From Candidatus Saccharimonadota bacterium (GTDB taxonomy: Bacteria > Bacillota_I > Bacilli_A > Mycoplasmatales > Hepatoplasmataceae), in the NCBI RefSeq assembly GCF_000582535.1, contig NZ_CP006932.1:540001-572000 (forward strand): 32,000 bases of DNA. The letters are read 5' to 3'. The notes below the pieces were generated by a model. It saw nothing but the letters and a program-made list of their open reading frames with translations. It was not told the DNA's origin and made no database searches. The stretch's first letter is position 1; the number at the start of each line of letters is the position of its first letter. The translations under genes were made by a program, and so were the position numbers. Shown here piece after piece: positions 1,577 to 32,000 of this stretch.

Positions 1577-2746
1577 CTATTTTTTCATTAAATATTTTAA
1601 ATCAAATCCAAGAATCTCTAAATTAAAAATTAATTTTTGATATTCAATTTGATTAAATTCTTTATTTAGTTTTTTAACCTGCAACATTAAGTATGAAACT
1701 GCATTTGCAGTATCTAAATCATTTTCTAAGATTTTAATAAAATTTTCATCTTGTATTGATTTTGGCATTTTTTTATCGAAGATTTTATCATCAAATTTTC
1801 TTAAACAATTTTTAATCTTTTGCATCTGTATCTTTGCATTTTCAATAACATTTCGATTTATATCAATTGGTTTGCGATAATGACTTAATAAAAAAAGCAT
1901 TCTTAAGATCATTGGAGAATAATTTTCAATAAAATCTTTTGCATATATAATATTACCCAAGGATTTTGACATTTTTTTTAAATTGAAATTTATATGACCT
2001 ATATATAATCAAGCTTTTGCTAATTCATTTTGATAAATTGCTTCATATTGTGCCATTTCATTGATATGATGGGGGAAATATAAATCAATCCCTCCGCCAT
2101 GAATATCAATACCACTATCACCAAAATATTTTTCAATAAGATAAGAGCATTCAGTGTGTCAACCAGGTCTTCCTTTACCTCAAGGAGAATTAAACATAAG
2201 ACCTTGGTTTGTTTTTTTTCACAAAGCAAAATCATTTTGGCTATTTTTACTAATGATTATGCCTTGTTTACTTATTAATTCATCCATATCTATATTAAGT
2301 TTTGAATTATATTTTTCTCATTTATTTATTGAAAAATAAATACCATCAACAGTTTGGTATGCATAACCTAAATTTATTAATTTTTCAATAAATAATATCA
2401 TCCCGCTAATATTATCAGAAACTTTTGGAAGATGAGTAGGAAGAAGAATATTAAGTTTTTGTAAAAGATTAAGATAATTTTTTAAATATTTTTCAGAAAT
2501 TTCTTTTTCTGATTTTTTTTCAAAAATTGCACGATTTATTATTTTATCATCAATATCTGTAATATTATGAACATAAATTATTTTTTGTTTATTTAAAATA
2601 GCTAGACGATGCAAAACATCAAAAATAACAACTGATCTTAAATTACCAATATGCGGATAATCATAAACGGTTGGTCCACAAAGATAAATTTTAAGTGTTT
2701 TTTTAAATTCTATTTTCTTTTTTGTATAAAAATCCACTACTAACAT
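1577..2746 (-). CDS. cysS: Cysteine--tRNA ligase
   Basis: Track fragments 2318-2746 and 1577-1972 share a frame and are joined through TGA codons (389 aa). It has the HIGH motif (YPHIGNLRS) and the KMSKS motif (KMSKSLGN). ATG at 2746, TAG at 1577-1579. Confidence 0.9.
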
Positions 2747-2761
2747 AGTTTAATTATAAAT

Positions 2762-2799
2762 AAAAGTAGAAAAGTTTATCAATAAACGATTCTACTTTT
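2762..2799 (-). terminator. Long hairpin plus U-run 15 nt upstream of the cysS start (terminator or leader attenuator)
   Basis: AAAAGTAGAA...TTCTACTTTT forms a perfect 10-bp outer stem, with an inner GTTTAT/ATAAAC stem. On the minus-strand RNA it is followed by UUUUAUUUAU. Confidence 0.4.
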
Positions 2800-2872
2800 A
2801 ATAAATAAATTTAAAAACAATTAATATATCTAAAAATGATTAAGCCACGTAAATAATATTACTCGAACCAAA

Positions 2873-2995
2873 AAAATAAAAAAGAGCAACATTTATGCGA
2901 GATGCCAAGTATCTTAATTAAATAAGAATGCATAAATGCTGCTTTTTTTCTCTTATTTAATTAATAAATACAAGGCAATATATATATTATATATA
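2873..2995. repeat. Copy A of a ~120-bp duplicated structured intergenic element
   Basis: Positions 2873-2956 are identical to 3164-3247. The next ~40 nt differ from copy B by 3 substitutions and a 2-nt indel. It contains a 14-bp stem (AGCAACATTTATGC / GCATAAATGCTGCT) that pairs fully, with one G-U, only as minus-strand RNA. The stem encloses two small hairpins and is flanked by A/T runs. Confidence 0.85.
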
Positions 2996-3053
2996 TTAAT
3001 AAATTAATCTCATATATTGTAAAATTTTTAAATTATTTTTATAAAATAAAAAA

Positions 3054-3088
3054 GCAGGCTTAATCTTAATAAAATAAGATCTGCCTGC
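3054..3088 (-). terminator. Rho-independent terminator-like hairpin between the two repeat copies
   Basis: GCAGGC...GCCTGC stem with an inner ATCTTA/TAAGAT stem. On the minus strand it is followed by UUUUUUAUUUUAU. Confidence 0.55.
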
Positions 3089-3163
3089 AAAATCATTAAA
3101 TGCACTTAGGGGATTAATATCTTTTAAATATTTAATGAAACTTTTTGTTGCTCAATTAATTTT

Positions 3164-3284
3164 AAAATAAAAAAGAGCAACATTTATGCGAGATGCCAAG
3201 TATCTTAATTAAATAAGAATGCATAAATGCTGCTTTTTTTCTCTTATTCAATCATAAATACAAGGCAATACATATTATATATTT
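3164..3284. repeat. Copy B of the ~120-bp duplicated structured element
   Basis: Direct repeat of 2873-2995 at an offset of 291 bp. It starts about 27 nt after the DUF3800 stop codon on the minus strand. Confidence 0.85.
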
Positions 3285-3310
3285 TAGAAATTACTATTTC
3301 TCAAAATTAT

Positions 3311-4066
3311 TTAATTAATTTTAAAGAAGAAATATTTATTAATATTCTTTTGTAAAAAATCTTTTTTAATTAAATAATTATTATGATAATTTTTATCAAT
3401 ATAAAAATCTTTTTTGATTAAAGGTTTATGATAAAAAGTAAATCATCTCTCTAAATAAGAAATGAGATCTGCTATTTCAATTAATAAGTAATATTCAAAA
3501 TCTTTTTTACTGATAAATTTAAAATTTTTTGTTGTAATTTCCGAATTTAAAGAAATTTTAAAATTTCTTTTAAGCAAAAAAATAAGTTTTTGATCTAATT
3601 TATTACCTCGTGTTTCAACAAAAAATTTACTATTAAGTAGCAATTTATTTAAAATCAATTGATCAAGAAAAATTTTAATTCCATAAAAATAGGGATCTAT
3701 TGTTTTTTCTTGATATTTTTTATAAAGAGAATTTATATCTATTCTAATTTGATAGATTTTAAAATGATACAATTCTAATAAATTTAGAAATTTATGAATA
3801 TAAATTTTACAATTTTTATCGTAGCGAATTTTAAAATTAAAAAATTCATAACTATGAAAAATAAAATATTCTGTTTGAAAATATTTTATTTTTAATTCTT
3901 TAATTAACAAATTGAGATAATCAAAAGTACTTTTTTCAAATAAAATAAGAGTAATAAAATTTAAAATTTCATTTTTATTGAAATCTATTCTATATTTACT
4001 TTTATAAATTCTTTGTATATGATTATTTGTTATTCCAGATTCGTCAATTCCAATGTAATATTTCAT
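3311..4066 (-). CDS. DUF3800-like protein of unknown function
   Basis: The start was moved to the internal ATG at 4066 (MKYYIGIDESG...), because the track's N-terminal extension overlaps tRNA-Cys. The frame reads through TGA at 3443-3445 to TAA at 3311-3313 (251 aa). The N-terminal IDESG motif and the C-terminal LLIEIADLISY motif resemble the DUF3800 hallmarks. Confidence 0.6.
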
Positions 4067-4131
4067 TACATTAAATTTATAAAGAAAATTCTTTTTTTCA
4101 ATTTTTTTTATAAATTTAAATAAACAAAAAA

Positions 4132-4206
4132 TGGAGGCGCGAATCGGATTCGAACCGACGATCAAAGAGTTGCAGTCTTCTGCCTTACCAGCTTGGCTAT
4201 CGCGCC
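4132..4206 (-). tRNA. tRNA-Cys (anticodon GCA), CCA encoded
   Basis: Reverse complement: GGCGCGATAGCCAAGCTGGTAAGGCAGAAGACTGCAACTCTTTGATCGTCGGTTCGAATCCGATTCGCGCCTCCA. It folds as a cloverleaf with a 7-bp acceptor stem. The anticodon loop is CUGCAAC, the T-loop is TTCGAAT, and the discriminator is U73, typical of tRNA-Cys. Confidence 0.93.
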
Positions 4207-4320: not shown

Positions 4321-5508
4321 TTACTGTAAAATTTCAACTACAGTTCCAGCGCCAACTGTTCTTCCACCTTCACGAATTGAAAATTTAGTATTTTTTTCAA
4401 TTGCAACAGGAGAAATTAATTCAATAATTAATTCTGTATTATCACCAGGCATTACCATTTCTGTTCCTTTTGGTAAAGTAACAATTCCAGTAACATCTGT
4501 TGTTCTTAGATAAACTTGTGGACGATAATTTGTAAAAAATGGTGTATGTCTTCCACCCTCTTCTTTTTTAAGAGCATATATTTGTGCTGTAAATTTTTTA
4601 TGAGGAGTAATTGAACCAGGTTTACATATAACTTGGCCACGTTGTATTTCTTTGCGATCAACACCACGAAGTAATAAACCAACATTATCTCCTGCTTCAG
4701 CATAATCTAATAATTTTCTAAACATTTCGATTCCAGTAACAATTGTTTTTTTAGTTTTGCTGCTCAAACCAACAACTTCTACTTCAGAACCTTCTTTGAT
4801 TTCACCACGTTCAACTCTTCCAGTAGCAACAGTTCCACGTCCAGTAATTGTAAATACATCTTCTACTGGTAATAAGAATGGTTTATCTTTTTCACGTACA
4901 GGAAGTGGGAAGTATTTATCGCATGTATCAACAAGTTCACCGATTGCTTTTTCATATTTTTCATCACCTTCAAGTGCTTTTAAAGCAGAACCATAAATAA
5001 AAGGTGTATTATCACCATCAAAACCATATTTTGATAATAATTCACGAACTTCCATTTCTACAAGTTCAATCATTTCTTTATCATCAATCATATCTACTTT
5101 ATTAATAAATACAATTAATTTTTGAATTCCAACTTGTTTTGATAAAACAATATGTTCACGAGTTTGAGGCATTGGACCATCAGTAGCAGAAACAACTAAA
5201 ATTGCACCATCCATTTGTGCAGCTCCAGTAATCATATTTTTAACATAGTCAGCATGACCAGGAGCATCAATATGTGCGTAATGTCTTTTTGCTGTTTCAT
5301 ATTCAACGTGTGCTGTATTAATAGTGATACCACGTTCTTTTTCTTCTGGAGCAGCATCAATTGCATCATAGGTCATTTTTTTTGCATAACCTTTTTTTGA
5401 TAGATAACTTGTAATTGCTGCTGTTAATGTTGTTTTTCCATGATCAACATGTCCGATTGTTCCAATATTAATATGTTCTTTTGAACGATCAAATTTTTCT
5501 TTTGCCAT
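4321..5508 (-). CDS. tuf: Elongation factor Tu
   Basis: Unmistakable EF-Tu sequence ([28 protein letters not shown]..., [12 protein letters not shown]). The start is taken at ATG 5508 rather than the track's upstream GTG at 5517. Confidence 0.98.
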
Positions 5509-5636
5509 TTTTCTCACTTTCTTTAAATTATTATTAATTTAACAAATTTAAGATCTGTTAATTAAATACAATGACACTTAATATTATATATTATCAAATC
5601 TTATATTAAATAATCTAAATTTTCTTAATTAATATA

Positions 5637-5849
5637 TTAATTAATTTGACGAACCTCAAATTCTTCATTAAAACGTTTTTCAAGTTCTTTTTCAATTTTT
5701 GTTAAACTAACGTGACCAAGATATCTTAAGGTGTTTCCATTTTTAAAAATAACTTTTATATCATCTTTATTTTTATGTAAAAGATAATCCTCGATCTCAT
5801 TTGATGAAATTTGTAAATCTGAATTTCAACGTATTTGAAATTTTGACAT
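5637..5849 (-). CDS. Hypothetical small protein (70 aa)
   Basis: Absent from the track because of an internal TGA. A strong RBS (AAAGGAGAAGAGAAAATG) precedes ATG at 5849; the stop is TAA at 5637-5639. Translation: MSKFQIRWNSDLQISSNEIEDYLLHKNKDDIKVIFKNGNTLRYLGHVSLTKIEKELEKRFNEEFEVRQIN. No family recognised. Confidence 0.6.
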
Positions 5850-5872
5850 TTTCTCTTCTCCTTTATAATAAT

Positions 5873-6517
5873 TTATAAAATATTCTTAGAAATTTCTAGA
5901 TAATAAACAGATCTTTCAAGTTCAATAAATTTTTCTTCATATTCTGTTTTGATAATTTTTTCATTTGTATATTGATGTAAATTTGCTGATTTTTCAACTA
6001 TAAAAAATTTATCTTTTAAATCTTTATCATTTAAATTTTCAAGAACAAAGTTAAATAAATCTTTTTGATCAGTTTTAATTAAAATTTTTCCTTGATTTTT
6101 TAAAATTTGATGATAATAAATTAACAATTCTTTTGTAAGCAATCTTCTTTTATAATGTCTTTTTTTTGGTCAAGGATCTGGAAAATTTATAAAAATCTTT
6201 TCAATTGAATTTTTTGAAAAATAAGATTTTAAATTATTAATATCACCTAAAATAAATTTAAGATTATTTAATTTTAAATTTTCTATCCTTTTTATAGCTT
6301 TTACTTGAATTGTTGCGTTTTTTTCAATTCCAATTATTTTGGCATCTTTATTTTCAAGAGCAATCTCTGTAATAAATTGTCCTTTTCCATGTCCAATTTC
6401 AAGAAAAATCTTTTGATCATTTTTAATTCATTTTTTATATTTATCTTCTGAATCTAAAAGATTGTTTGATTTTTTTAAGTAATTTATTGCACCTGGTTTT
6501 ATCCGTACTCTTCCCAT
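5873..6517 (-). CDS. trmB: tRNA (guanine-N7)-methyltransferase
   Basis: Translation starts MGRVRIKPGAINYL and includes EIGHGKGQF and the FPDPWPKKRH motif (the W is TGA). The 5873-6142 track fragment extends upstream in frame to ATG at 6517 (214 aa). Confidence 0.88.
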
Positions 6518-6553
6518 AATTAAATTTTATCTTTTTTTTATTAAAAGTAAAAA

Positions 6554-6568
6554 GTGGGAAAATCCCAC
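6554..6568. terminator. Bidirectional terminator hairpin between uvrA and trmB
   Basis: GTGGGA-AAA-TCCCAC, flanked by A5 on one side and T6 on the other. Confidence 0.6.
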
Positions 6569-6574
6569 TTTTTT

Positions 6575-6594
6575 AAGTAAATGGCCATTTACTT
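6575..6594. other. Perfect 20-bp palindrome AAGTAAATGGCCATTTACTT
   Basis: The sequence is its own reverse complement. It lies next to the terminator hairpin in the uvrA-trmB spacer and could be a second hairpin or a protein-binding site. Confidence 0.5.
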
Positions 6595-6657
6595 GTAAAT
6601 CACCCCTTTTTTCTCCCGTTCTTCATTACAAAAAAGATTTTGATTTTACAATTAGTT

Positions 6658-6666
6658 ATTATAGCA
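6658..6666 (-). promoter_or_regulatory. Extended -10-like box TGCTATAAT (minus strand)
   Basis: The reverse complement of attatagca gives TGnTATAAT, 7 nt after the uvrA stop and about 140 nt upstream of the trmB ATG. Chance matches to this box are common in AT-rich DNA. Confidence 0.3.
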
Positions 6667-6672
6667 CGATAA

Positions 6673-9492
6673 CTATTTTAAAATATACCTAAGATATTTT
6701 CCTGTTTCAGAAATTTTACTATTTGAAATCTCTTCAGGGGTACCATGAGCAATAACTTTTCCTCCATGATTTCCTCCTTCAGGTCCCATATCTATAATAT
6801 GATCAGCAACTTTAATTACATCTAAATTATGTTCAATTATAAGAATTGAATCACCATTATCGACAATCTTATTTAAAACTACCAATAATTTTTTAATATC
6901 ATGATGATGTAATCCTGTTGTTGGTTCATCTAAAATATATAAAGTTTTCCCTGTTGCTTTTTTTTGTAAATAAGTAGCAAGTTTTACTCTTTGAGCCTCT
7001 CCTCCTGAAAGTAAAGTAGAAGAATGTCCTAGTTTAATATAATCAAGACCAACATCTTTTAAATATTTAAGTTTTCTACTAATTTTTGGTTGATTTTTAA
7101 AAAAGATATTCGCTTCTTCTACTGACATATCTAAAACATCTGCAATATTTTTATCTTTAAAAGTAATTTGTAAAGTTTCTTCGTTATATCTTTTCCCATT
7201 ACATTCATCGCATTTTACATAAACATCGGGAAGAAAATGCATTGGAATTCGTAAAATTCCATCACCTTGACATTTTTCGCATCTTCCACCTTTTACATTA
7301 AATGAAAATCTTCCTGCAGCATAGCCTTTTATTTTTGCTTCATTTGTACTTGCGAAAAGTTCACGAATATCAGAAAAAACACTGGTATAAGTAACAGGAT
7401 TAGAACGAGGAGTTTTACCAATAGGATCTTGTGATATTCTTACAACTTTATCAATATTTTCGACACCTTTAATTGCATCACATAAACCAGGAATATCAAA
7501 ATGATTTCCATGCGAAGTCAGATTATGTAATTTTTTGTAAATTATTTCATTTACAAGAGTTGATTTTCCTGATCCAGATACACCAGAGACAACAACAAAT
7601 TTTTTAAGAGGAATTTTGACATTGATGTTTTTTAAATTATTTGCTTTTGCTCCATATATTTCAAGATATTTTTGCTCAGAAATATTTCTTCGCTTTTTCG
7701 GAATTTCTATTTGATCTTTTCCTGAAAGAAAATTTCCAGTATGTGTTTCTTTTTTTGCGACTTCTTCTGCTGTTCCTGTAGCAATTACTTTTCCCCCATA
7801 AATTCCAGCATCAGGACCAATATCAATTAAATAATCAGATTCAAGCATCATTTCTTCATCATGTTCAACAACAACAACAGTATTACCTAAATCTCTAATT
7901 TCTTTTAAAGTATTAATTAATTTTTCATTATCTCTTTGATGAAGTCCGATTGATGGTTCATCTAATACATAAATAACACCGGTAAGTTTTGAACCTAGTT
8001 GTGATGCTAATCTTATTCTTTGACTTTCTCCTCCCGAAAGAGTATTAGCCATTCGATTTAAAGTAAGATATCCTAATCCAACATTTATTAAAAATTTAAA
8101 TCTTGATTTAATTTCACTAATTACAAGATTTACAATTTTTAATTCTTGTTCACTTAATTTAAGATCTTTAATTCATTTATTTGCTTCTTCAATTGAAAGT
8201 GCAGTAACCTCAAAAATATTTTTATGATTAATTTTTACAGCAAGAGCATGTTGATTTAGTCTTGATCCATTACATTTATCACATGTACTTGTTGCAAAAA
8301 ATTGTTTATAATAGTTTCTTGCAAAATCTGATGCTGTTTCAAGATTTAATCTTTCAATCATTGTAGCAAGTCCCTCAATATAATCATATTTACGAACTGT
8401 AAGAGATTTTGTTTTTACTTTAAAATTAATTGGTTCTTTTGAACCATATAAAATAATCTCTTGTTCTTTTTCTGTAAAGTCTTTTAATTTTTTGTCAAGC
8501 GAAATATTATATTCTTTTAATAAAACAATAAATTTTTCTCAATTATATCCTGATAATTTATCACCAAAATATTTAATTCCTCCCTCTAATATTGTTTTAT
8601 CTTGATCCACCATTTTTTCTCAAGTTACTTGCTGAATAAATCCTAATCCATTACATTTATTACAAGCTCCTAAAGGTGAATTAAAAGAAAATAATTTTGG
8701 TTCAATTTTTGGCATTGAAAAATCACCATGTTTACAACCTAATTTAAGAGAATATAATTCTTCCTTTTTTTCTGTAAGGTTTTCAACACTTACTAAACCA
8801 TCAGCATATTTTGTAGCTAACCCTAAACTTTCATAAATTCTTGATCTATTTTCTGTATTTAAGATAATTCGATCTACTAAGATATCAATTGTATATTTTT
8901 TATGTTTATCTAATTCTTCGATATTATCTAAATGTAAAATTTCATTATTTACTCTTATTCTTAAAAAACCTTCTTTTTTAAGTTCTGAAATTTCATTTTT
9001 AAATGACCCTTTTTTATTAGAAACTAAAGGAGCAAATATTTGCAATTTAGAATTTTCTTTTCAATTATAGATTTGATTAATAATTTGCGTAATTGTCTGT
9101 GATGATATTTCTATATTGTGAATAGGACAATAGGGAATTCCAATTCTTGCAAATAATAATCGATAAAAATCATAAATTTCAGTAATTGTTCCTACAGTAG
9201 ATCTTGGATTATTAGAAGTTGTTTTTTGATCTATTGCAATTGCAGGTGATAACCCTTCAATTGAATCAACAGCAGGTTTTGCTGTTCCTCCTAAGAATTG
9301 TCTTGCATAATTTGAAAGAGAATCAACATATCTTCTTCTTCCTTCATTATATAAAACATCAAAAGCAATAGAAGATTTCCCTGATCCGGAAACACCAGTA
9401 ATTACAATTAGTTTATTCTTTGGTAATTCTAAATCAACATTTTTTAAATTATTTTCTTGTGCATTTTTTATTATTATTTTATCGTTTATCAT
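6673..9492 (-). CDS. uvrA: Excinuclease ABC subunit A
   Basis: Four track fragments (9061-9492, 8620-9045, 8173-8361, 6673-8052) share one frame and are joined through TGA codons (939 aa). It has two ABC ATPase modules ([23 protein letters not shown] signatures) and zinc-finger CxxC pairs. Confidence 0.96.
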
Positions 9493-9574: not shown

Positions 9575-10309
9575 ATGGAATGAGAATGATTAAATAATAA
9601 ATTAAAAAATTATGAAATAGATTTTGAAATAGTTAATAAAAGATTAGAAAATCATAAAAATGAATTTAATTTTTGAAAAATTCAAATTGAAAATTATTAT
9701 AACTTAATGAAAAATAATTATATCAAAAAATATTTTGAAAAAATAGAAGAATTAGAAACATTTATTAATGAAAATCAAATAAATGATTTATCTAAATTAA
9801 ATAATTTTTTAAATTCAAATGGGGGTAAAATTGATGAATTTTATTATGAACACTTAAATTTAATAAAAACTGATTCATTAAAAAATTATTTAAAAAATTT
9901 TATATTTTTCTCTTTTGAAGGAAGTATAAATAATTTAATTATGTTAGAAAAAATAATAGACGATATAGAACAATACAATAAAAATGAAAATCAAAAAAAT
10001 TTAAAAATAATAATGGATTTTTTATTTAAAATTCTATTTAAGGAAATTATTGAAAATTTTGAATTGGCTAAATCAAAATTTGAATATCTATTACAAAATA
10101 ATGTTTTAATAAAAAAATGTAGTAAATTAAAAATCAATAATAATTTAAATTATTGATCAAAATACTTTGATCTTTTCTTTAATGAAAATGCTATTTTTAT
10201 AAGTGAAGCAGAAAAATTTGCAGAAAATCATCAATTTAAATTGATGAAAAGTATTAAAAAATTTAAAATATTTTGATTTTTACCAGAGAATTTTGAAAAA
10301 AATAAATAA
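9575..10309 (+). CDS. Hypothetical Asn/Lys-rich protein (244 aa), possibly the 5-prime part of a disrupted gene
   Basis: ATG at 9575 (MEWEWLNNKL..., both W are TGA). It reads through several TGA codons and the 9707-10156 track ORF to TAA at 10307-10309. No family recognised. Confidence 0.55.

Positions 10310-22934: not shown

Positions 22935-22954
<20 letters not shown>
21788..22954 (-). CDS. HD-domain phosphohydrolase (dNTPase/SAMHD1-like family)
   Basis: The 22391-22954 fragment (THTRLAHSLG, LLHDIGHGPFSH, DVDRLDYLLRD) reads through TGA codons to TAA at 21788-21790 (388 aa). Its stop overlaps the argS ATG (TAATG), and its start lies 20 nt inside gltX. Confidence 0.8.
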
Positions 22955-24365
<1,411 letters not shown>

Positions 24366-24420
24366 ATATATATTAAATAATTAAAATAATTATACTATTT
24401 AAATTTAATATAATAAAAAA

Positions 24421-24438
24421 GCAAAACTTTCGTTTTGC
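24421..24438. terminator. Bidirectional terminator hairpin
   Basis: GCAAAAC-TTTC-GTTTTGC is flanked by A6 and T4, immediately after the stop of the 157-aa gene. Confidence 0.75.
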
Positions 24439-24454
24439 TTTTAATTACTTTTCT

Positions 24455-24928
24455 TTATTGATGTTTAATGTTATAAGATTGTAAATATTTTTGATCTAAT
24501 TTTGTGATAACTTGTCTTACTTTTTCACCTAAATATTTATTTAGTTTTTCTTCGTAAATTTCGTTTCCAAGTTCTTCTTTTTCTTTTTCAAAAACTTTTA
24601 CCTTATTTTTTAATTTTGATAATTTTTTACTTATTCTTTCGTAAGTTTCATTTTTATAATAATCACTAAAATCTTTATCTTTATTTTGGTCATAAATTCC
24701 AAAAAGAAAATCTATCTGATTTTTATTAATAAGAATTTCTGCAATAAGATGAATCATCTTTTCAATATTCTCAATTTGATCATTAATTTTACCTTCAATG
24801 AAAAGACGATCTATAATTCTTAAATCGTTTCTCATTTTAGGTCCGAAACTTTCTTCTGAAATAGGAGTTTCATTTATTTTTTTGTTATCCATTCGATTAA
24901 GTTCGTTTACCATTTCTCTGTTTTTCAT
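24455..24928 (-). CDS. Hypothetical 157-aa Lys/Glu-rich, probably all-helical protein
   Basis: Intact ORF ending at a true TAA. It has an AGAGG RBS and a TATAAT-like box upstream. No motif I can assign. It lies downstream of the DUF2075-like gene. Confidence 0.65.
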   Translation of the reverse strand: MKNREMVNELNRMDNKKINETPISEESFGPKMRNDLRIIDRLFIEGKINDQIENIEKMIHLIAEILINKNQIDFLFGIYDQNKDKDFSDYYKNETYERISKKLSKLKNKVKVFEKEKEELGNEIYEEKLNKYLGEKVRQVITKLDQKYLQSYNIKHQ

Positions 24929-25084
24929 GTTAACCTCTAAAATCTTCTGTTCATTAACATTTGTAAGATTATAAATATACTATATTTATACTAAATAATA
25001 GAAAATTTATATTTATATATTTTAAAAATAAAAATAAAAATATCCCATTTTTCTTAATTTTGCATTTTATTTGCATAAATAAAT

Positions 25085-26824
25085 TTATTTTTGAAAAATT
25101 TTTTCCGTCTTATAATTAAATAATTTTAAAAAAAATATATTTTTGTATTTTAATAAAAATTCTAAAACAAATTTATTTTCAACATATATATTTAATCTTT
25201 TTGAAGTTCTTGTTATATTGATATACATTTCTCTTCAATTTTTAATATTTTCCTTTTGAATTTTTTTAAAATCAGAATAATTATTTTCTTTATTTACAAA
25301 AAGGATTCTATTATTATCAATTTCATCATCTTTATAATTTTTGAAAATTTTATTTAACTCATTTGAAAGAAATATATTTGAATCAAAAATAATGTTTACG
25401 CTTTCATACTCTTTCCCAAGATTTAAACGAGTTAAATCAATATTAACTTTATCTTCATTTAATAAATTTGTCTCTTGTAAATATGTAATTAATGTAGAAT
25501 CTGCTTTTTGTTTATATTTATCTAAAAATCCAGGATTATATAAGTAAAAATTTAAATTTTCATAAAAGTAAATTAATTCTTCAAAATCAAATTTAATATT
25601 ATTTTGATCTTTTATAAATGATTTAACATTTATTAATTTCGCTAATTTTTCTTCTGTTATTTTCAATAAATTTCAAAAATGAAGGAATAATTTATTTGTT
25701 CTTATGGAATTTTTTAATTTGCAATCCTTAAAAGAAAGTGAACTTTTTATATTTTCAATTATTTCATCAATATCTTCATTTGAATTATTTCCTAACAATT
25801 GATTTTCACTTAAAAATAAAATAATTTTAATATTTTTATTTTTTTTCATCATTTTTTTCAAATTTTCAAATTGTTTCTTTTCAATTCTTTGAAATTCATC
25901 TATAAAAATAAATTCAATATTATTTATTAAATCATATCTAGGGTTTCATTCATTTAATATTTTTTTAGGATATCCTAAAATATCTTTACCTTGATAAATT
26001 TCTGGTAAATTTTCTTTATTTCAATTTTCATGAAAATCATACAATTTTGAACCCAAAAAAACAATTTTAGATTTTTTAAATTCCTTTTCTTTTGCTAAAT
26101 GATGAAGAATCAAAGATTTTCCTGTTCCGGGATCTCCTTTTATAAGTATTCATTTTTTATTTTCTTTAATTCAATTTTTAATTTTACAAATTGCACATTT
26201 TTGAGATTCATTTAATAAATAATTCCCATTATTAAAATTTTCAAAATCATCAAATAAATTTATTTTTGAATAGATGTAATTATATTTTAATCATTTATTA
26301 TCTTCCGAATTAGATTCTAAATTTAAAATTTCTTTTAAAAATTTATTTTTTTCAATTTTTTTTAAATTACCATCAGATAAAAAATAATAAGAATTTTCAT
26401 TATCATTTTTATTGTATAAAATTCCATAAATAATTAATTTTTTATTTTGCTTATTTGATATTTTTTTTAAATGGTTATTTTTATTAATTAATTGTGATTT
26501 TAATTTTTTTTTTACCTCTTTTTTATTTTCTTTATTAAAATTTTTAATTTCAATATCTAATATTTCATGTTCCCCATATTTAAAAAAATCAAATTCTTGA
26601 TTTAAATAAATATCATTAAAACATAACATTACTTCTTTATAAAAATATTCTTTTTTTTCTTCTAAATCATTAAAAGAATTAATATCTTCTAAAAACTTTT
26701 TAATAGAATCAATTTCTTCTAAATTTATTCCATTGTCACTAAAATATATTTCTTCCATTTTCATTTTTTGATTAAAAATAGATAAATTGTCCCGCTCTAC
26801 TGAATATATTTCTTTTAAATTCAT
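25085..26824 (-). CDS. DUF2075 / SF1-helicase-like P-loop NTPase with an uncharacterised N-terminal domain (579 aa)
   Basis: Translated codon by codon. Fragments 26291-26824, 25862-26290 (untracked), 25673-25861 and 25235-25666 form one frame joined by TGA codons, ending at TAA 25085-25087. Walker A is GDPGTGKS (26114-26137) and the Walker B-like motif is FIFIDEFQR (25886-25912). These are followed by LKNSIRTNKLFLHFW and GKEYESVNIIFD, which match the DUF2075 motif order. The N-terminal part contains LDIEIKN (26540-26560). Confidence 0.6.
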
Positions 26825-26936
26825 TATTTTTATATAAATTTAGTATTAAATTTATTAATATTTTAATTAGTTTAATATAAAATTATTCTCTCCTTTTTAT
26901 TAATTAGTTCTTATTTTTAATTTTATTATTGATTAT

Positions 26937-26964
26937 TAATATTTTTAAATATTTAAAAATATTA
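26937..26964. promoter_or_regulatory. Perfect 28-bp palindrome TAATATTTTTAAATATTTAAAAATATTA
   Basis: The sequence is its own reverse complement. It lies about 115 nt upstream of the DUF2075-like gene start and is a candidate operator, although pure-AT palindromes are more likely by chance here. Confidence 0.3.
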
Positions 26965-27036
26965 TAATTACTTTAAGGTAATATAAGTACGTTTAAAAAT
27001 TGTTAATCAGAACTGTTCATATTGCTTTAACAAAAA

Positions 27037-27054
27037 GGGAACTGTATAGTTCCC
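27037..27054. terminator. Bidirectional terminator hairpin after the ROK kinase gene
   Basis: GGGAACT-GTAT-AGTTCCC is flanked by A5 and T7. Confidence 0.8.
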
Positions 27055-27082: not shown

Positions 27083-28072
27083 TTATTTTTGATCTTTTAA
27101 AAGAATTGCTGAATAACAAGCTCCGTATAATCCTGCATCATTTCCTACATTACATAATTCAATTCTTGTTGTTTCTCTTATAAAATCATGGGTAAATCTT
27201 TTATATACTGGTTGCAAATATTCTAATAAAGTATCATTATCATGTGCTAAACCACCACCAAGAATAATTGTTTCTGGATTAAGAATCATTGCAATAGTAG
27301 CAAGAACTCTTCCTCCATATTCAGAAAATTCTTGTGCAGATTTAACTGCTAATGAATCTTTTTTTCGTACAGCATCTCAAATCTTTTTTCCATTTATTTC
27401 TTGACCATCAAGAATTGATTTTACTTGAGGATTATTCTTTTTAATATCATTATAAATATTTATAATACCAGTTGCTGAAAAAAGTGGTTCAGCACATTCA
27501 GGTAATCCACAAGTACATTGAAATCTTGTTTTAAAACCTTGAATTGGAATATGGCCAATTTCACCAGCCGTTCCCCCTGAACCTTGATATAATTTTCCAT
27601 TAATTACAACACCAGCCCCAAGACCAGTTCCTAAAGTAAGGAAAACAAAATTATCAACATCTCGTGCTTTTCCAATAAATTTCTCCCCTAGAGCAGCCAT
27701 ATCACAATCATTATGTACAGCTATTGGTAAATCATTTCATCATTTCTTAAGATCTTTTTTTACATCGTAATTTTTTCATCCAATATTTCCGGAAAACTTA
27801 ACAGTTCCATCAAGTGCAGGAAAACCGGGAATTCCAATTCCCATTGCAATTGCTTTTTTCCCATCATATTTAGGACCTTTTAATTTATCTTTAAATTCTT
27901 TTGTTATTTCTTCTGGAATATATTTTCCTTTATCACTTAAATTAGTTTTTATTTTTCATCGATCAAGCATCAATCCTGATCTAGTAATAATAGCTAATTT
28001 AATAAAAGTCCCACCAATATCAACGGCAAGTAAAAGATCTTTTTTATTATATTTATCTTTTATCTTAATCAT
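27083..28072 (-). CDS. ROK-family sugar kinase (glucokinase-like)
   Basis: ATG at 28072 (MIKIKDKYNKKDLLLAVDIGGTFIK...). Fragments 27377-27700 and 27083-27289 share the frame (329 aa). ROK signatures are present: LGTGLGAGVVINGKLYQGSGGTAGEIGH and the CxCGxxxC zinc motif (CTCGLPEC). Its start overlaps the lacB stop by 8 nt. Confidence 0.85.
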
Positions 28073-28559
28073 GATATTTTCCTTCATCTCAATCTTTTAA
28101 TTCTTTTGCAAAAGAAACTTCTTTATATTCTTTTACAATTGAATCTAGATATTCAACAACTTTACGATCTCCTCTAAATTTAGTTCTAATAAAAATATCA
28201 ATCGCCTCTTCGATTATCCCTAATCCTGTTATTTTGCCACCAAAAGCAATAATATTTGCATCGTATTGTTTACGTGCAAATCTTGCTTGTGTTAAATCCC
28301 TTACAAGAGCAACTCTTGCTCCTTTTACTTTTTGTGCAGAATTTGAAATTCCAACTCCTGTACCACAAATAATTACAGCTATATCAGCTTTTTTATTTAC
28401 AACTAATTCTGCTGCATTTTGTCCAAAAATTGGATAATGCGTTCTTACGAAGTCATATGTTCCAACATCAATTACTTGATGTCCATCTTTTGTTAATTTT
28501 TCTTTTAATTTGTCTTTAATATCAGTTACGATATGATCACAACCTAATGCTATCTTCAT
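28065..28559 (-). CDS. lacB: Galactose-6-phosphate isomerase subunit LacB (RpiB/LacA/LacB family)
   Basis: MKIALGCDHIVTD, VIDVGTYDFVRTHYPIFG and ICGTGVGI are near-identical to the staphylococcal/lactococcal LacB blocks as I recall them. Reading through TGA at 28089 adds W-DEGKYHD, matching the conserved LacB C-terminus WDRGEYHD (164 aa). Confidence 0.85.
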
Positions 28560-28579
28560 AAATTTTCCTTCTATTATCT

Positions 28580-29014
28580 TTACGCTAATTTATTGAGCAT
28601 ATCTATTCTTATCATATGTCTTCCAGCCGCAAATTTTGTTTCTAAAAAGAGTCTCGCAATTTCTTTTGCAAGATAAATACTTGTAATATTCGCCCCTAGT
28701 GCAATCCCCATTGCATTATTATGTTCTCTAGTCATATGTGCTGAATGTTCATCAGCACATTGTGCTACGATCATTTTTTTTACTTTTGCAGAAGCTGCAA
28801 AACCAAGACCACCAGATTCATCAATTGTAATCAATCGGTCTTCTCCATTTTTTTCTACTATTTTTCTGCTTATCTCTGTTACTTTTTTTAAGTAAGCAAG
28901 TTCATCTTCAAATAGAAAGATTTCAACATCTTTTCTTAATCTTTTTTCTAAATAGTTTTTCAGATTATTAGAATAACCTTGAAATCTATCTTTACTTACA
29001 ATAAAAATCTTCAT
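28580..29014 (-). CDS. lacA: Galactose-6-phosphate isomerase subunit LacA-like
   Basis: Intact 144-aa ORF. EHSAHMTREHNNA and the C-terminal GRHMIRIDMLNKLA match LacA (DERSGYMTRGHNN ... GRHQIRVDMLNKM). Confidence 0.8.
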   Translation of the reverse strand: MKIFIVSKDRFQGYSNNLKNYLEKRLRKDVEIFLFEDELAYLKKVTEISRKIVEKNGEDRLITIDESGGLGFAASAKVKKMIVAQCADEHSAHMTREHNNAMGIALGANITSIYLAKEIARLFLETKFAAGRHMIRIDMLNKLA

Positions 29015-29022
29015 AATTTTCC

Positions 29023-30102
29023 TTAATTTGTTGCTTTTGCTTGTTTTACTTGTTTTGCTGATTTTTTGTTCATTGTAAATCAGTAATATAAAGGTAATAA
29101 ATTAGAAATAAATAATAAGATACTTTGAATTGATAATATCAAGTTTCCTGATTCAAAATAAACTACCATTTGTGCAATCATTGCAACTTCAAATGAAATT
29201 CAAGCTCAGTATGTTTTTTTAGTAAGAAGAATTAATCCAACTACTTGGAAAATTCCTACTACCATATCTCAATAAGGAGCAACATCATATACTACACCCG
29301 ATTCGATCGTATAACTATATGTTATTTGTCCAAATTCATTACTTATTTGAGTGTAATTATCAAGTGTTGTATCAGGATTTGTTGCATAACTATAAAATGT
29401 TTTAGTATCTGTAAAAATTACAGGTGTAATTAATAATAAAGAAAAAACAACAAAAACTGCAGCAATTGCAAGACAAATTCCTCATCATTTATAATTCATT
29501 TGTGATAAATATGGATTTAGATCTACTTTTTGATCTTGTTTTTCTCATTCAAAATAACGTCACTGTCCAAGAACAAGTCCAATTATTTGTGAAATAGCAA
29601 TTCATCATGCTCCATAAACAACATCAACAATTAAAAATGAAGTCATAGAAATTTGATTTCATCAAATAAATCTTTTTGAAAATTTAATTAAAAAGATATT
29701 TGCCATAAATTGACAAACAGATGCAATTAATGATAAAAATAGTAAAAATCAGGAAATTATGTAAAATGCATTACTTTTAGAAAATCCATCTTCCGTAACT
29801 ATTCCATATTTTCCATTTATTGTTTTACCAAAAGCGGTTTGATTTGATGAATTATTACCAACACCAAATAAAATTATATTTACAACAGAGATAACTAATA
29901 AAATTCCAATAAATATAATCATTGTATATAAAGTGAAATCTTCTTGTGATCACTGTTTGGGTTTAAGAAATCTTGAAAAATCAATAAAGGAATCACGATG
30001 AGCAGCAGAAGTAATATCTTTTTGATCTGCTTTTTTAACTTCCGTTTTTTCTTTTGATTTTTCCTTATTTTCTTTTGAGGGGGGGGGTGAATTATTACTC
30101 AT
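29023..30102 (-). CDS. PnuC-family (nicotinamide riboside-type) transporter-like membrane protein with an N-terminal extension
   Basis: Absent from the track because it has many TGA codons. ATG at 30102, TAA at 29023-25 (359 aa). Two internal repeats fit the PnuC pattern: ...IFLIKFSKRFIWWNQISMTSFLIVDVVYGAWW...LGQWRYFEW and ...GLILLTKKTYWAWISFEVAMIAQMVVYFESGN...LLPLYYWF. The stop lies 8 nt before the lacA start. Confidence 0.55.
30079..30087 (-). repeat. G9/C9 homopolymer inside codons 6-8 (PPP) of the pnuC-like gene
   Basis: The plus strand reads tgagggggggggtga, so the coding strand is TCA-CCC-CCC-CCC-TCA (MSNNSPPPSKEN...). It is the only long G/C run in the window. Confidence 0.9.
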
Positions 30103-30250
30103 ATTGTATCTTCTTCCTCATTTATATTTATTTTTATTTAAATTTTTTTATAAAAATCCCCTTTTATATAATTCTTTATATTTACCTTTACAAATAAATA
30201 ATAATACTTTCTAAAATTATTGTTTTGTTTTTGTCTTAATTATTTTAAAT

Positions 30251-30262
30251 TTGTCTAGACAA
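30251..30262. promoter_or_regulatory. TTGTCTAGACAA palindrome, a GntR/HutC-type (dre-like) operator candidate
   Basis: Perfect 12-bp palindrome with the core GTCTAGAC, in the divergent pnuC-like/aldolase intergenic region. It lies 90 nt upstream of the aldolase ATG. Confidence 0.4.
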
Positions 30263-30351
30263 GTTAATTTTTAATATCAATTTTTAAGCAAAAAATAGTA
30301 TATTAAAAATAAAAAGATAATAAGATTTTTATTATTTTAAATGGAGAAAAA

Positions 30352-31209: not shown

Positions 31210-31421
31210 TGGATATATTTTGAAATATATTTTATCAAATTTTAATGTTTATATTCGCTTGTTGAATTATTTGATTTTTCTTTGAATCTAAAAATATTTT
31301 TTTAAAAGCAGGAGGAGTAATAATTTTATTAATTTTATTAGTATTATTTATTATAAGTATTTTAAATACATATTTTAATTTTGATATATTTAATTTAAGT
31401 TTAAATGCAAATTATAAATAA
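31209..31421 (+). CDS. Hypothetical small membrane protein (70 aa, 2 predicted TM helices)
   Basis: Its ATG overlaps the aldolase TAA (TAATG). It has 3 TGA codons. Translation: MDIFWNIFYQILMFIFACWIIWFFFESKNIFLKAGGVIILLILLVLFIISILNTYFNFDIFNLSLNANYK. Confidence 0.5.
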
Positions 31422-31564
31422 ATAATTAAATTAGTAAAATTTTATAATGACAAAAAATAGAAAAATCAAAAATTTTCAAGAAAATAGAACAAAAATAGAA
31501 AAAATATAAATATATAAATTTATTATGAAAAGCAAAATACATACTAATTACTTCTATACTATAA

Positions 31565-32000
31565 TTTGAAGAAAATATTAAAATTACAAATAAAGTAAAA
31601 TCATTAATAAAAGATCAAGATATATCATTAGAAGAATAACTTGGAATGATTGAGGAGAAAGAAAATAATAGAAGAAGAAGTTGATCATTTTGCAAAAGTA
31701 AAAGATGCTATTAATATTTATTAATATTATAAATATTGATATGTTAGTTATTCTTGTGGTAATTATTAACGGTTTTTATGTAAAACAACCAAAAATAAAT
31801 ATCTTTTTAATTAAAGAAATGTATGATAAAACAAAAAACCAATAGTATTATATAGGAGAAAAAGAGTTCCTTTAAATCAAATTAATAAAACTTTAAAAAT
31901 AAGAAGAAGAAAAGCCAATTTTGATAGTGAATTTAAAAAAAATTGCGGAATTTTAGAATATATGTATAAAAATCCTGATGCTTTTGATCTAAGAAAAATC
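31565..32000 (+). pseudogene. Decayed partial duplicate of the aldolase gene's 3-prime half (runs off the window)
   Basis: It aligns to 30679-31122 at an offset of about 886 bp. The first ~66 nt have a single mismatch. Beyond that there are substitutions and small indels, including an in-frame TAA at 31637-31639 (originally GAA) and frameshifts. Confidence 0.85.

Follow-up and report, generated by a model that had tools for sequence, protein, structure and literature searches.

Two neighbouring minus-strand genes, located between gltX and the ROK/lacAB genes in the reduced genome of Candidatus (Ca.) Hepatoplasma crinochetorum Av, raise the question of whether this Mollicute possesses an undescribed antiviral system. 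Both genes lie within a stretch of 32,000 nt of contig NZ_CP006932.1 (positions 540,001 to 572,000, forward strand), which is referred to below as the window and is numbered from its first letter. In a preceding interpretation made without database searches (the sequence-only reading), they were considered an orphan two-gene module, in which a helicase-like ATPase with a novel nuclease-like N-terminus is combined with a 157-amino acid (aa) partner, and were put forward as the best candidate for an undescribed system. The analysis presented here gives a different answer: the product of the large gene, X271_00533, is very probably an anti-phage or anti-plasmid enzyme of the AbiO/Nhi family that works as a single protein, and the gene is carried by a 1.9-kb cassette occupying a variable slot. 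This reading builds on homology with the family over the full length, on the retention of its invariant catalytic residues, on the modelled fold, and on the finding that the gene is accessory and independent of its neighbour.

The features of the large gene are the following:

25085-26824, minus strand: nuclease-helicase gene X271_00533 of Ca. Hepatoplasma crinochetorum Av, 579 aa (open reading frame (ORF) under translation table 4)
26249-26824, minus strand: PD-(D/E)xK-type nuclease domain, aa 1-192 (family N-domain profile, AlphaFold2 model)
26588-26590, minus strand: codon of D79 (in EFD), predicted metal-binding Asp (invariant in 69 of 69 aligned family sequences)
26540-26560, minus strand: LDIEIKN motif, aa 89-95
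26543-26551, minus strand: codons of E92-I-K94, the ExK of PD-(D/E)xK, within LDIEIKN (E92 and K94 invariant in 69 of 69)
25145-26227, minus strand: superfamily 1 (SF1)-type helicase/DUF2075 (SLFN-g3) ATPase, approximately aa 200-560 (Pfam, PDB profile, Foldseek)
26114-26137, minus strand: GDPGTGKS, Walker A, aa 230-237 (G233, G235 and K236 invariant in the family)
25886-25912, minus strand: FIFIDEFQR, Walker B/motif II, aa 305-313 (D309 invariant; E310 and R313 at least 96% conserved)
aa 370-384, minus strand: LKNSIRTNKLFLHFW motif
aa 470-481, minus strand: GKEYESVNIIFD motif

The 579-aa sequence is an exact match of X271_00533, which is annotated as "hypothetical protein" in the 657-kb genome. 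Translation with table 4 bore out the proposal that reading TGA as Trp fuses several fragments into one minus-strand coding sequence of 579 codons (25085-26824), and the motifs quoted for the protein in the sequence-only reading were all found at the positions given there. The frame contains seven in-frame TGA codons (aa 178, 218, 225, 268, 293, 384, and 530) and no TGG; table 11 splits it into pieces of 177, 30, 62, 143, and 47 aa. An identical protein in the same context was found in three further public sequencing runs, so the gene is not an assembly artefact.

According to the comparison with the PADLOC models, X271_00533 matches two defence proteins from end to end, namely AbiO (PDLC02350; E = 4.7e-35, 119 bits, aa 1-558 on profile positions 4-464 of 468) and Nhi (PDLC02372; E = 1.4e-29, 101 bits, aa 1-550 on profile positions 4-458 of 470). 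Among 1.84 billion representative proteins, searched exhaustively with HMMER, 97 relatives were detected, mostly of about 500 aa and with a maximum identity of 31%. In addition, a family alignment was constructed from 69 full-length sequences including X271_00533, and a family hidden Markov model (HMM) was built from the 68 relatives, with X271_00533 left out. All 69 aligned sequences match both the AbiO and the Nhi models (best E values of 4e-185 and 7e-179), so the two names designate one family here; the same proteins have been labelled both AbiO and Nhi by other authors too (PMC11811056). Against the family HMM, X271_00533 scored 133 bits and its 500 shuffled versions reached 1.1 bits at most, which shows that the match is not compositional.

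Residues D79, E92, K94, Q111, Y202, L204, G233, G235, K236, D309, and R375 are invariant in all 69 sequences. Of the 38 columns with a conservation of at least 90% among the other members, X271_00533 retains 29, including D79, E92, K94, Q111, G233, G235, K236, D309, E310, R313, R375, E472, and R539, as against a 29% match to the consensus overall. The protein exceeds the family median (502 aa) by approximately 76 aa; these residues form ten short insertions rich in Lys and Asn, of which several fall in loops modelled with low confidence, and add no extra domain. X271_00533 thus appears to be a very diverged, intact member of the known AbiO/Nhi single-protein defence family and not a new system. 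The idea of a fused nuclease and SF1 helicase of an anti-phage type agrees with the Pfam and PADLOC matches and with the conserved residues; the claim of an undescribed system does not hold, since the protein is a full-length homolog of a family whose activities as nuclease, helicase and anti-phage defence are published (10.1101/776245).

The distribution of the family was assessed in several ways. Word-indexed protein searches, made with X271_00533 and with the 69-sequence profile, returned only X271_00533 itself, the candidate list probably being swamped by low-complexity words. A tblastn search of X271_00533 against plasmids gave no match with the low-complexity filter on; the canonical family member P0016, used as the query, gave matches on 199 plasmids, and plasmid homologs are frequent in Bacillus, Enterococcus, and Lactococcus. 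Scanning of genome contigs with a DNA pattern of the family motifs revealed at least 120 loci, with 113 verified members among the matches listed. Among these matches, the loci span Bacillota, Bacteroidota, Proteobacteria, Patescibacteria and other phyla, in agreement with the distribution reported by Bari et al. No Mollicute was present among the matches listed, which leaves room for other Mollicute members. No published report of AbiO/Nhi in a Mollicute was found, and the literature on DefenseFinder surveys of Mollicutes gave nothing relevant. One of the homologs, a protein of 524 aa in an oral Streptococcus metagenome contig (L006), follows rplM-rpsI directly upstream of AbiGi and AbiGii and forms with them a small defence island (5120-8835) at the end of the ribosomal-protein operon.

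As for the N-terminal sequence, it had been described as novel, and this description had to be abandoned, since the region corresponds to the nuclease domain of the family itself. The N-domain alone scored 35.5 bits against the N-domain profile of the relatives (alignment of residues 1-176), and 1000 shuffled sequences gave 2.5 bits at most. The conserved signature of the domain, EFD(79)...I-E(92)-x-K(94)...Q(111)L, corresponds to the PD-(D/E)xK motif, and Q111, located downstream of E92 and K94, is invariant in 69 of 69 sequences as well. According to the signature alignment, the catalytic Asp is D79 and not D90, which stands opposite a non-conserved Asn in NIELK, the consensus of the family. 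The D-x-E-x-K motif previously recognised in LDIEIKN is therefore correct as regards ExK, with its invariant E92 and K94, but the Asp belonging to it is that of EFD.

The AlphaFold2 model of aa 1-192 is confident (predicted local distance difference test (pLDDT) 86) and shows a beta-beta-beta-alpha-beta core; E92 and K94 lie in the strand that follows the one with D79. A Foldseek search of the PDB with this domain gave top matches that were all PD-(D/E)xK nucleases, though weak ones (E from 3e-3 to 0.25): bunyavirus and arenavirus cap-snatching endonucleases, the archaeal Holliday-junction resolvases Hjc/Hje, HincII, and the R2 endonuclease domain. Membership of the NERD family (PF08378) was considered and rejected; X271_00533 has no NERD match, and the matches of 3 of 40 family N-domains are weak (best E = 0.0029). 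The nuclease fold is tentatively assigned, mainly on the motif and on published work on the family.

The remaining part of the protein had been attributed to the DUF2075/SF1-helicase-related ATPases, and both profile and structure searches support this attribution. Pfam PF09848 matches aa 223-377 with 40.9 bits, above the cut-off of 24, over profile positions 1-162 of 354 only, and generic P-loop families match in addition. The family profile finds its best PDB sequence match in T4 Dda (3upu, E = 5.9e-8), which Bari et al. likewise named as the homolog of the Nhi helicase (10.1101/776245). The full-length AlphaFold2 model has a pLDDT of 78 and a predicted template modelling score of 0.80, with 170 residues above pLDDT 90. 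Its Foldseek matches are SLFN11 (top match, E = 1e-8), Pif1, Dda, GajB, and other SF1 helicases, with E values from 1e-8 to 1e-5.

The experimentally characterised member of the family is Nhi of Staphylococcus epidermidis RP62a (SERP2475, 606 aa), a single-gene defence (Bari et al. 2022; bioRxiv 10.1101/776245). Its N-terminal 230 aa form a PD-(D/E)xK nuclease, which is a metal-dependent nickase and 3'-5' exonuclease whose activity is nearly absent in the full-length protein, and its DUF2075 region is a bipolar SF1 helicase; Ala substitutions in either domain abolish immunity (10.1101/776245). Nhi blocks the accumulation of phage DNA without appreciable cell death, and the phage single-stranded DNA-binding protein (SSB) sets the sensitivity to it (10.1101/776245). 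Nhi homologs were reported in less than 1% of Firmicutes, Bacteroidetes, and Proteobacteria genomes, often on plasmids, and 72% of them have a defence neighbour within 20 genes (10.1101/776245).

X271_00533 resembles Nhi in being a single polypeptide (579 vs. 606 aa) in which a PD-(D/E)xK domain is followed by a DUF2075/P-loop SF1 helicase with Dda as the closest helicase of solved structure, and in being accessory, horizontally spread and without an obligate partner. It differs from Nhi in that all its Trp codons are TGA, in the approximately 76 extra residues of its Lys/Asn-rich loop insertions, in lacking any trace of the glyoxalase/bleomycin-like domain, itself poorly conserved, that was noted at the C-terminus of SERP2475, and in its host, a Mollicute, which is not among the phyla in the Nhi study. 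AbiO, a lactococcal abortive-infection protein whose first description came from a plasmid of Lactococcus lactis, gives X271_00533 its highest score among the defence models and has the same domain order; its family members are frequent on plasmids, whereas X271_00533 is chromosomal in a reduced symbiont genome.

Similarity with human SLFN11/SLFN5 (Schlafen group 3, PF09848) exists only at the superfamily level, despite SLFN11 being the top Foldseek match, and the Schlafen-core RNase domain is of a different type from the N-terminal PD-(D/E)xK nuclease of X271_00533. Hna, Gabija (GajA/GajB), and Hachiman (HamA/HamB) share with it the logic of a helicase sensor or motor coupled with a nuclease effector, and GajB is among its structural and weak HMM neighbours. 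X271_00533 showed no significant PADLOC match to the Hna, Gabija, or Hachiman models; Gabija and Hachiman are two-protein systems, unlike X271_00533, and the domain order of Hna is opposite. Several of these nuclease-plus-helicase defences are triggered by phage SSB or by replication intermediates (PMC10732053).

By analogy with Nhi, the N-terminal PD-(D/E)xK domain of X271_00533 (D79, E92, K94) would act as a Mg2+/Mn2+-dependent nickase and 3'-5' exonuclease that is held inactive in the full-length protein, and the SF1 helicase (K236, D309/E310, R375) would spend ATP on unwinding DNA from single-stranded overhangs. Replication intermediates of an invading phage, probably marked by phage replication proteins or SSB, would activate the enzyme, which would then degrade the DNA of the invader with no recognition sequence needed. 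The gene itself has been part of a TGA=Trp lineage of extreme A+T richness for so long that its recoding is complete.

The genomic context of X271_00533 was compared with contigs of Ca. Hepatoplasma scabrum (L001), of a second Hepatoplasma lineage (L002), and of H. crinochetorum-like strains (L003-L005). The features of the locus are the following:

25044-26936: strain-specific cassette with the nuclease-helicase gene and its upstream region, 1893 bp (blastn against L003, L004, and L005)
24455-24928, minus strand: gene of a 157-aa Hepatoplasma-specific helical protein, resident flank (table-4 ORF, homologs)
22935-24365: gltX, flank
27083-29014: ROK/lacAB genes, flank
27037-27054, minus strand: intrinsic terminator of the lacAB-ROK operon (-15.2 kcal/mol, z -4.4)
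24417-24442, minus strand: intrinsic terminator downstream of the 157-aa gene (terminator scan; -13.8 kcal/mol, z -7.0)

The cassette flanks are 96-98% identical to L003-L005. In the comparison of the window with L003, homology ends at 26937 and resumes at 25043, so that 1893 bp are swapped for 1124 bp. In L003-L005 the slot contains a 313-aa Fic/Doc-type protein (HPFSNGNKR; Pfam Fic E = 9e-7) and a 36-aa ORF (L003 6757-7821); in L002 it holds only a 39-aa ORF (7692-7811); and in H. scabrum the order is ROK, 270 nt, the 157-aa gene and gltX, with nothing in the slot. A tblastn search with genetic code 4 found no remnant of the helicase gene in L001-L005. The helicase gene is thus absent from the gltX-to-ROK interval of these relatives, and the locus is not a universally conserved core one. 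The earlier suggestion of an accessory insertion between conserved operons is supported for the helicase gene with its 1893-bp cassette, but not for the 157-aa gene, which is resident in the relatives.

The 39-aa ORF of L002 is a homolog of the 36-aa ORF of L003 and stands alone in the slot. The Fic protein and the small ORF of L003 may represent a Phd/Doc-like toxin-antitoxin pair, the toxin of which may have been lost in L002. Direct repeats around the cassette are only A+T-rich ones at chance level, together with a perfect 28-nt palindrome at the left cassette junction (TAATATTTTTAAATATTTAAAAATATTA, 26937-26964), whose L003 equivalent is imperfect. This palindrome could be a chance feature of A+T-rich DNA or a recombination or regulatory site.

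The 157-aa gene indeed lies 156 nt downstream of the large gene, and, in agreement with its description as a protein of no recognisable family, searches with its product against Pfam, PADLOC, NCBIfam, and the sequences of the PDB gave no match. Its homologs, one of them in Ca. Hepatoplasma scabrum, show 98%, 68%, and 64% identity and are all exactly 157 aa long. On the five relative contigs the gene is situated between ROK and gltX in the same orientation, without the nuclease-helicase, and a homolog was found beside none of 123 AbiO/Nhi loci. These two observations refute the two-gene module; the adjacency of the two genes is accidental, and the AbiO/Nhi gene retains a single-gene status, its neighbour being independent in all relatives examined.

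The 157-aa gene had also been considered to be separately promoted. Promoter-like matches in the region are fewer than in shuffled sequences (20 vs. 32.9) and lend no support to this view, but the relatives share a conserved sequence immediately before the gene, and the cassette boundary at 25043/25044 is located upstream of this conserved promoter region.

Of the earlier claim that strong terminators bracket the pair, the hairpins themselves stood: both are real, but each belongs to a conserved neighbour, namely the ROK operon and the 157-aa gene. No terminator was found after the helicase gene, and no terminator-like structure between it and the 157-aa gene. A role of the terminators as brackets of an insertion was ruled out, the ROK terminator being conserved in the relatives and none following the helicase gene. 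In L001, L002, and L003, ROK is likewise followed by this terminator, whose stems differ in sequence between the lineages and yet pair. The stems of three lineages (window 27037-27054, L001 ~7745-7765, and L002 ~7607-7635) are entirely different in sequence (GGGAACT/AGTTCCC, GGGTATC/GATACCC, and AGAGAACATC/GATGTTCTCT), a clean case of compensatory change.

The nucleotide composition of X271_00533 was analysed separately. Its guanine-plus-cytosine (GC) content is 16.3%, compared with 23% in gltX, 30% in ROK/lacAB, and 22.2% in the 157-aa gene (22-30% in the flanking genes overall). The statement that the pair is more A+T-rich than its flanks is hence valid for the large gene and not for the 157-aa gene, whose composition is not unusual. 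At third codon positions, the GC content of X271_00533 is 8.8%, vs. 7-10% in the housekeeping genes of the window; the low overall value arises at codon positions 1 and 2 from a composition rich in Phe, Tyr, Ile, Asn, and Lys (53% in total). A foreign origin deduced from the low GC content was rejected: the third-position value is host-like and all seven Trp codons are TGA, which indicates long residence in a TGA=Trp, A+T-rich lineage. The composition is no evidence of recent import. The nearest relatives are metagenomic and Firmicutes proteins of about 30% identity, so that a donor cannot be named.

Two other unannotatable ORFs of the window, 3311-4165 (minus strand, 16.5% GC) and 9575-10309 (plus strand, 14.1% GC), show the same low GC content at codon positions 1 and 2, as weakly constrained genes do, and neither has a Pfam or PADLOC match. 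The latter interrupts a long block of minus-strand genes as the only one on the plus strand, and the GC skew reverses locally at its position. Both may be further accessory or fast-evolving genes.

Several points weigh against the assignment of X271_00533 to an active AbiO/Nhi defence. Its identity to any relative is 31% at most, and nine strongly conserved family positions are changed (e.g., D339S, E348S, and P187K). The N-domain had no Foldseek match at E ≤ 0.001, and the Pfam NERD and Cas4 families match only 3 and 1 of 40 family N-domains, respectively. One Bacteroidetes homolog of Nhi gave no protection in the published assay (10.1101/776245), so that membership is no guarantee of activity, and no phage or plasmid of Hepatoplasma is known (PMC3942034). 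The intact frame and the kept residues argue that the diverged protein is probably still active; the changed positions and the loop expansions call for caution.

Among the rival explanations, the one to be taken most seriously leaves the family unchanged and alters the outcome for the cell: X271_00533 could be an AbiO-like abortive-infection toxin that damages host DNA upon infection, and not a direct degrader of phage DNA like Nhi. The AbiO model outscores that of Nhi (119 vs. 101 bits), one S. aureus Nhi homolog was toxic when induced (10.1101/776245), and the cargo of the same slot in the sister strain is a Doc/Fic toxin-type gene. This explanation is nevertheless rather unlikely, as the 69 aligned members match both models about equally and the labels do not separate clades here; the same proteins were called by both names by other workers (PMC11811056), and sequence alone is silent on the outcome for the cell. 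An inactive relic, i.e., an acquired defence gene that drifts under A+T pressure and is open by chance, is less likely still. It would account for the 16.3% GC content, the 53% of Phe, Tyr, Ile, Asn, and Lys, the surplus residues in about ten low-pLDDT Lys/Asn-rich loops, the changes at several conserved family positions, and the presence of the gene in one strain lineage only. However, a frame of 1740 nt with no stop codon except TGA=Trp would hardly survive drift in DNA of 16% GC, all family-invariant catalytic residues are kept although only 20-25% of positions are identical, and the AlphaFold2 core has pLDDT above 90 for 170 residues.

The two other explanations concern the neighbourhood and the cellular role of the enzyme, and very little probability can be attached to either. 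If the 157-aa protein were a partner of the nuclease-helicase (a sensor, an inhibitor, or an antitoxin), the adjacency of the genes on the same strand, 156 nt apart with no terminator between them, would be explained, but the small gene is found without the helicase, in the same place and with the same length, in H. scabrum, in the second lineage and in the 98%-identical strains. The cassette boundary separates the large gene from the conserved promoter region of the small one, no 157-aa homolog occurs at the 123 family loci, and Nhi works as a single gene; a two-gene system is accordingly highly improbable. The least credible is a housekeeping helicase-nuclease of DNA repair or replication with a Dna2/AddAB-like role. 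The combination of a nuclease with a superfamily 1B-like helicase is also the architecture of Dna2, and Pif1 and Dda are among the structural neighbours; yet the gene is absent at the syntenic site in the closest relatives, no copy above 31% identity was found in the 1.8 billion representative proteins, and the family is plasmid-borne and patchily distributed. The reading of X271_00533 as a single-protein enzyme of the AbiO/Nhi family is therefore preferred.

Further variable sites were noted beyond the ROK/lacAB genes. A gene at 29023-30102 (minus strand) encodes a 359-aa multi-pass membrane protein with 14 TGA=Trp codons and a weak match to nicotinamide-mononucleotide transporters (E = 1.3e-3); in H. 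scabrum, a second diverged paralog of it is located next to the fructose-bisphosphate aldolase gene (L001 2660-3622). Between the 359-aa membrane gene and the aldolase gene, L003 carries a gene pair (2325-3450) consisting of a ThsB-TIR-like gene (weak match) and an 8xMP membrane gene. The pair is flanked by a 47-nt direct repeat (98% identical), of which the window contains a single copy at ~30248-30294, and the site is a second cassette slot with a visible duplication. Beyond the aldolase gene, a KAP NTPase is encoded in L001 (917-2584), a KAP NTPase and a DNA methylase in L002 (1-1216), and GmrSD in L003 (1-1337); the window has no ORF longer than 93 aa there (31246-32000). This region is a third variable spot within approximately 10 kb. 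No integrase, transposase, or other mobile-element gene is in sight in this neighbourhood.

A wider picture, in which several integrase-less slots of this neighbourhood exchange defence and toxin cassettes among strains, is put forward only tentatively, as close to an even call. In it, a genome described as free of mobile elements would be under active phage or plasmid pressure, and its AbiO/Nhi copy would represent a Mollicute branch of the family that is functional, TGA-recoded and deeply diverged.

In published inventories of Hepatoplasma defence genes, only restriction-modification and CRISPR-Cas are listed (PMC10928387, PMC3942034, PMC4536667), to which X271_00533 contributes one more system. 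Neither the mechanism nor the class of system is new, and the novelty is one of annotation: behind a "hypothetical protein" of a minimal symbiont of the isopod gut, an anti-phage gene can be recognised. The addition is in line with the report that strains Av and Ps differ in few genes, mainly ones of defence. With 20-25% identity, 16% GC and all Trp codons recoded, the case also illustrates the extent to which an AbiO/Nhi protein can diverge with its catalytic residues kept, and would be useful for better detection of defence genes in Mollicutes. Finally, the comparison suggests that this neighbourhood holds several integrase-less variable slots with defence or toxin cargo, which is the most interesting, though modest, lead provided by this locus.

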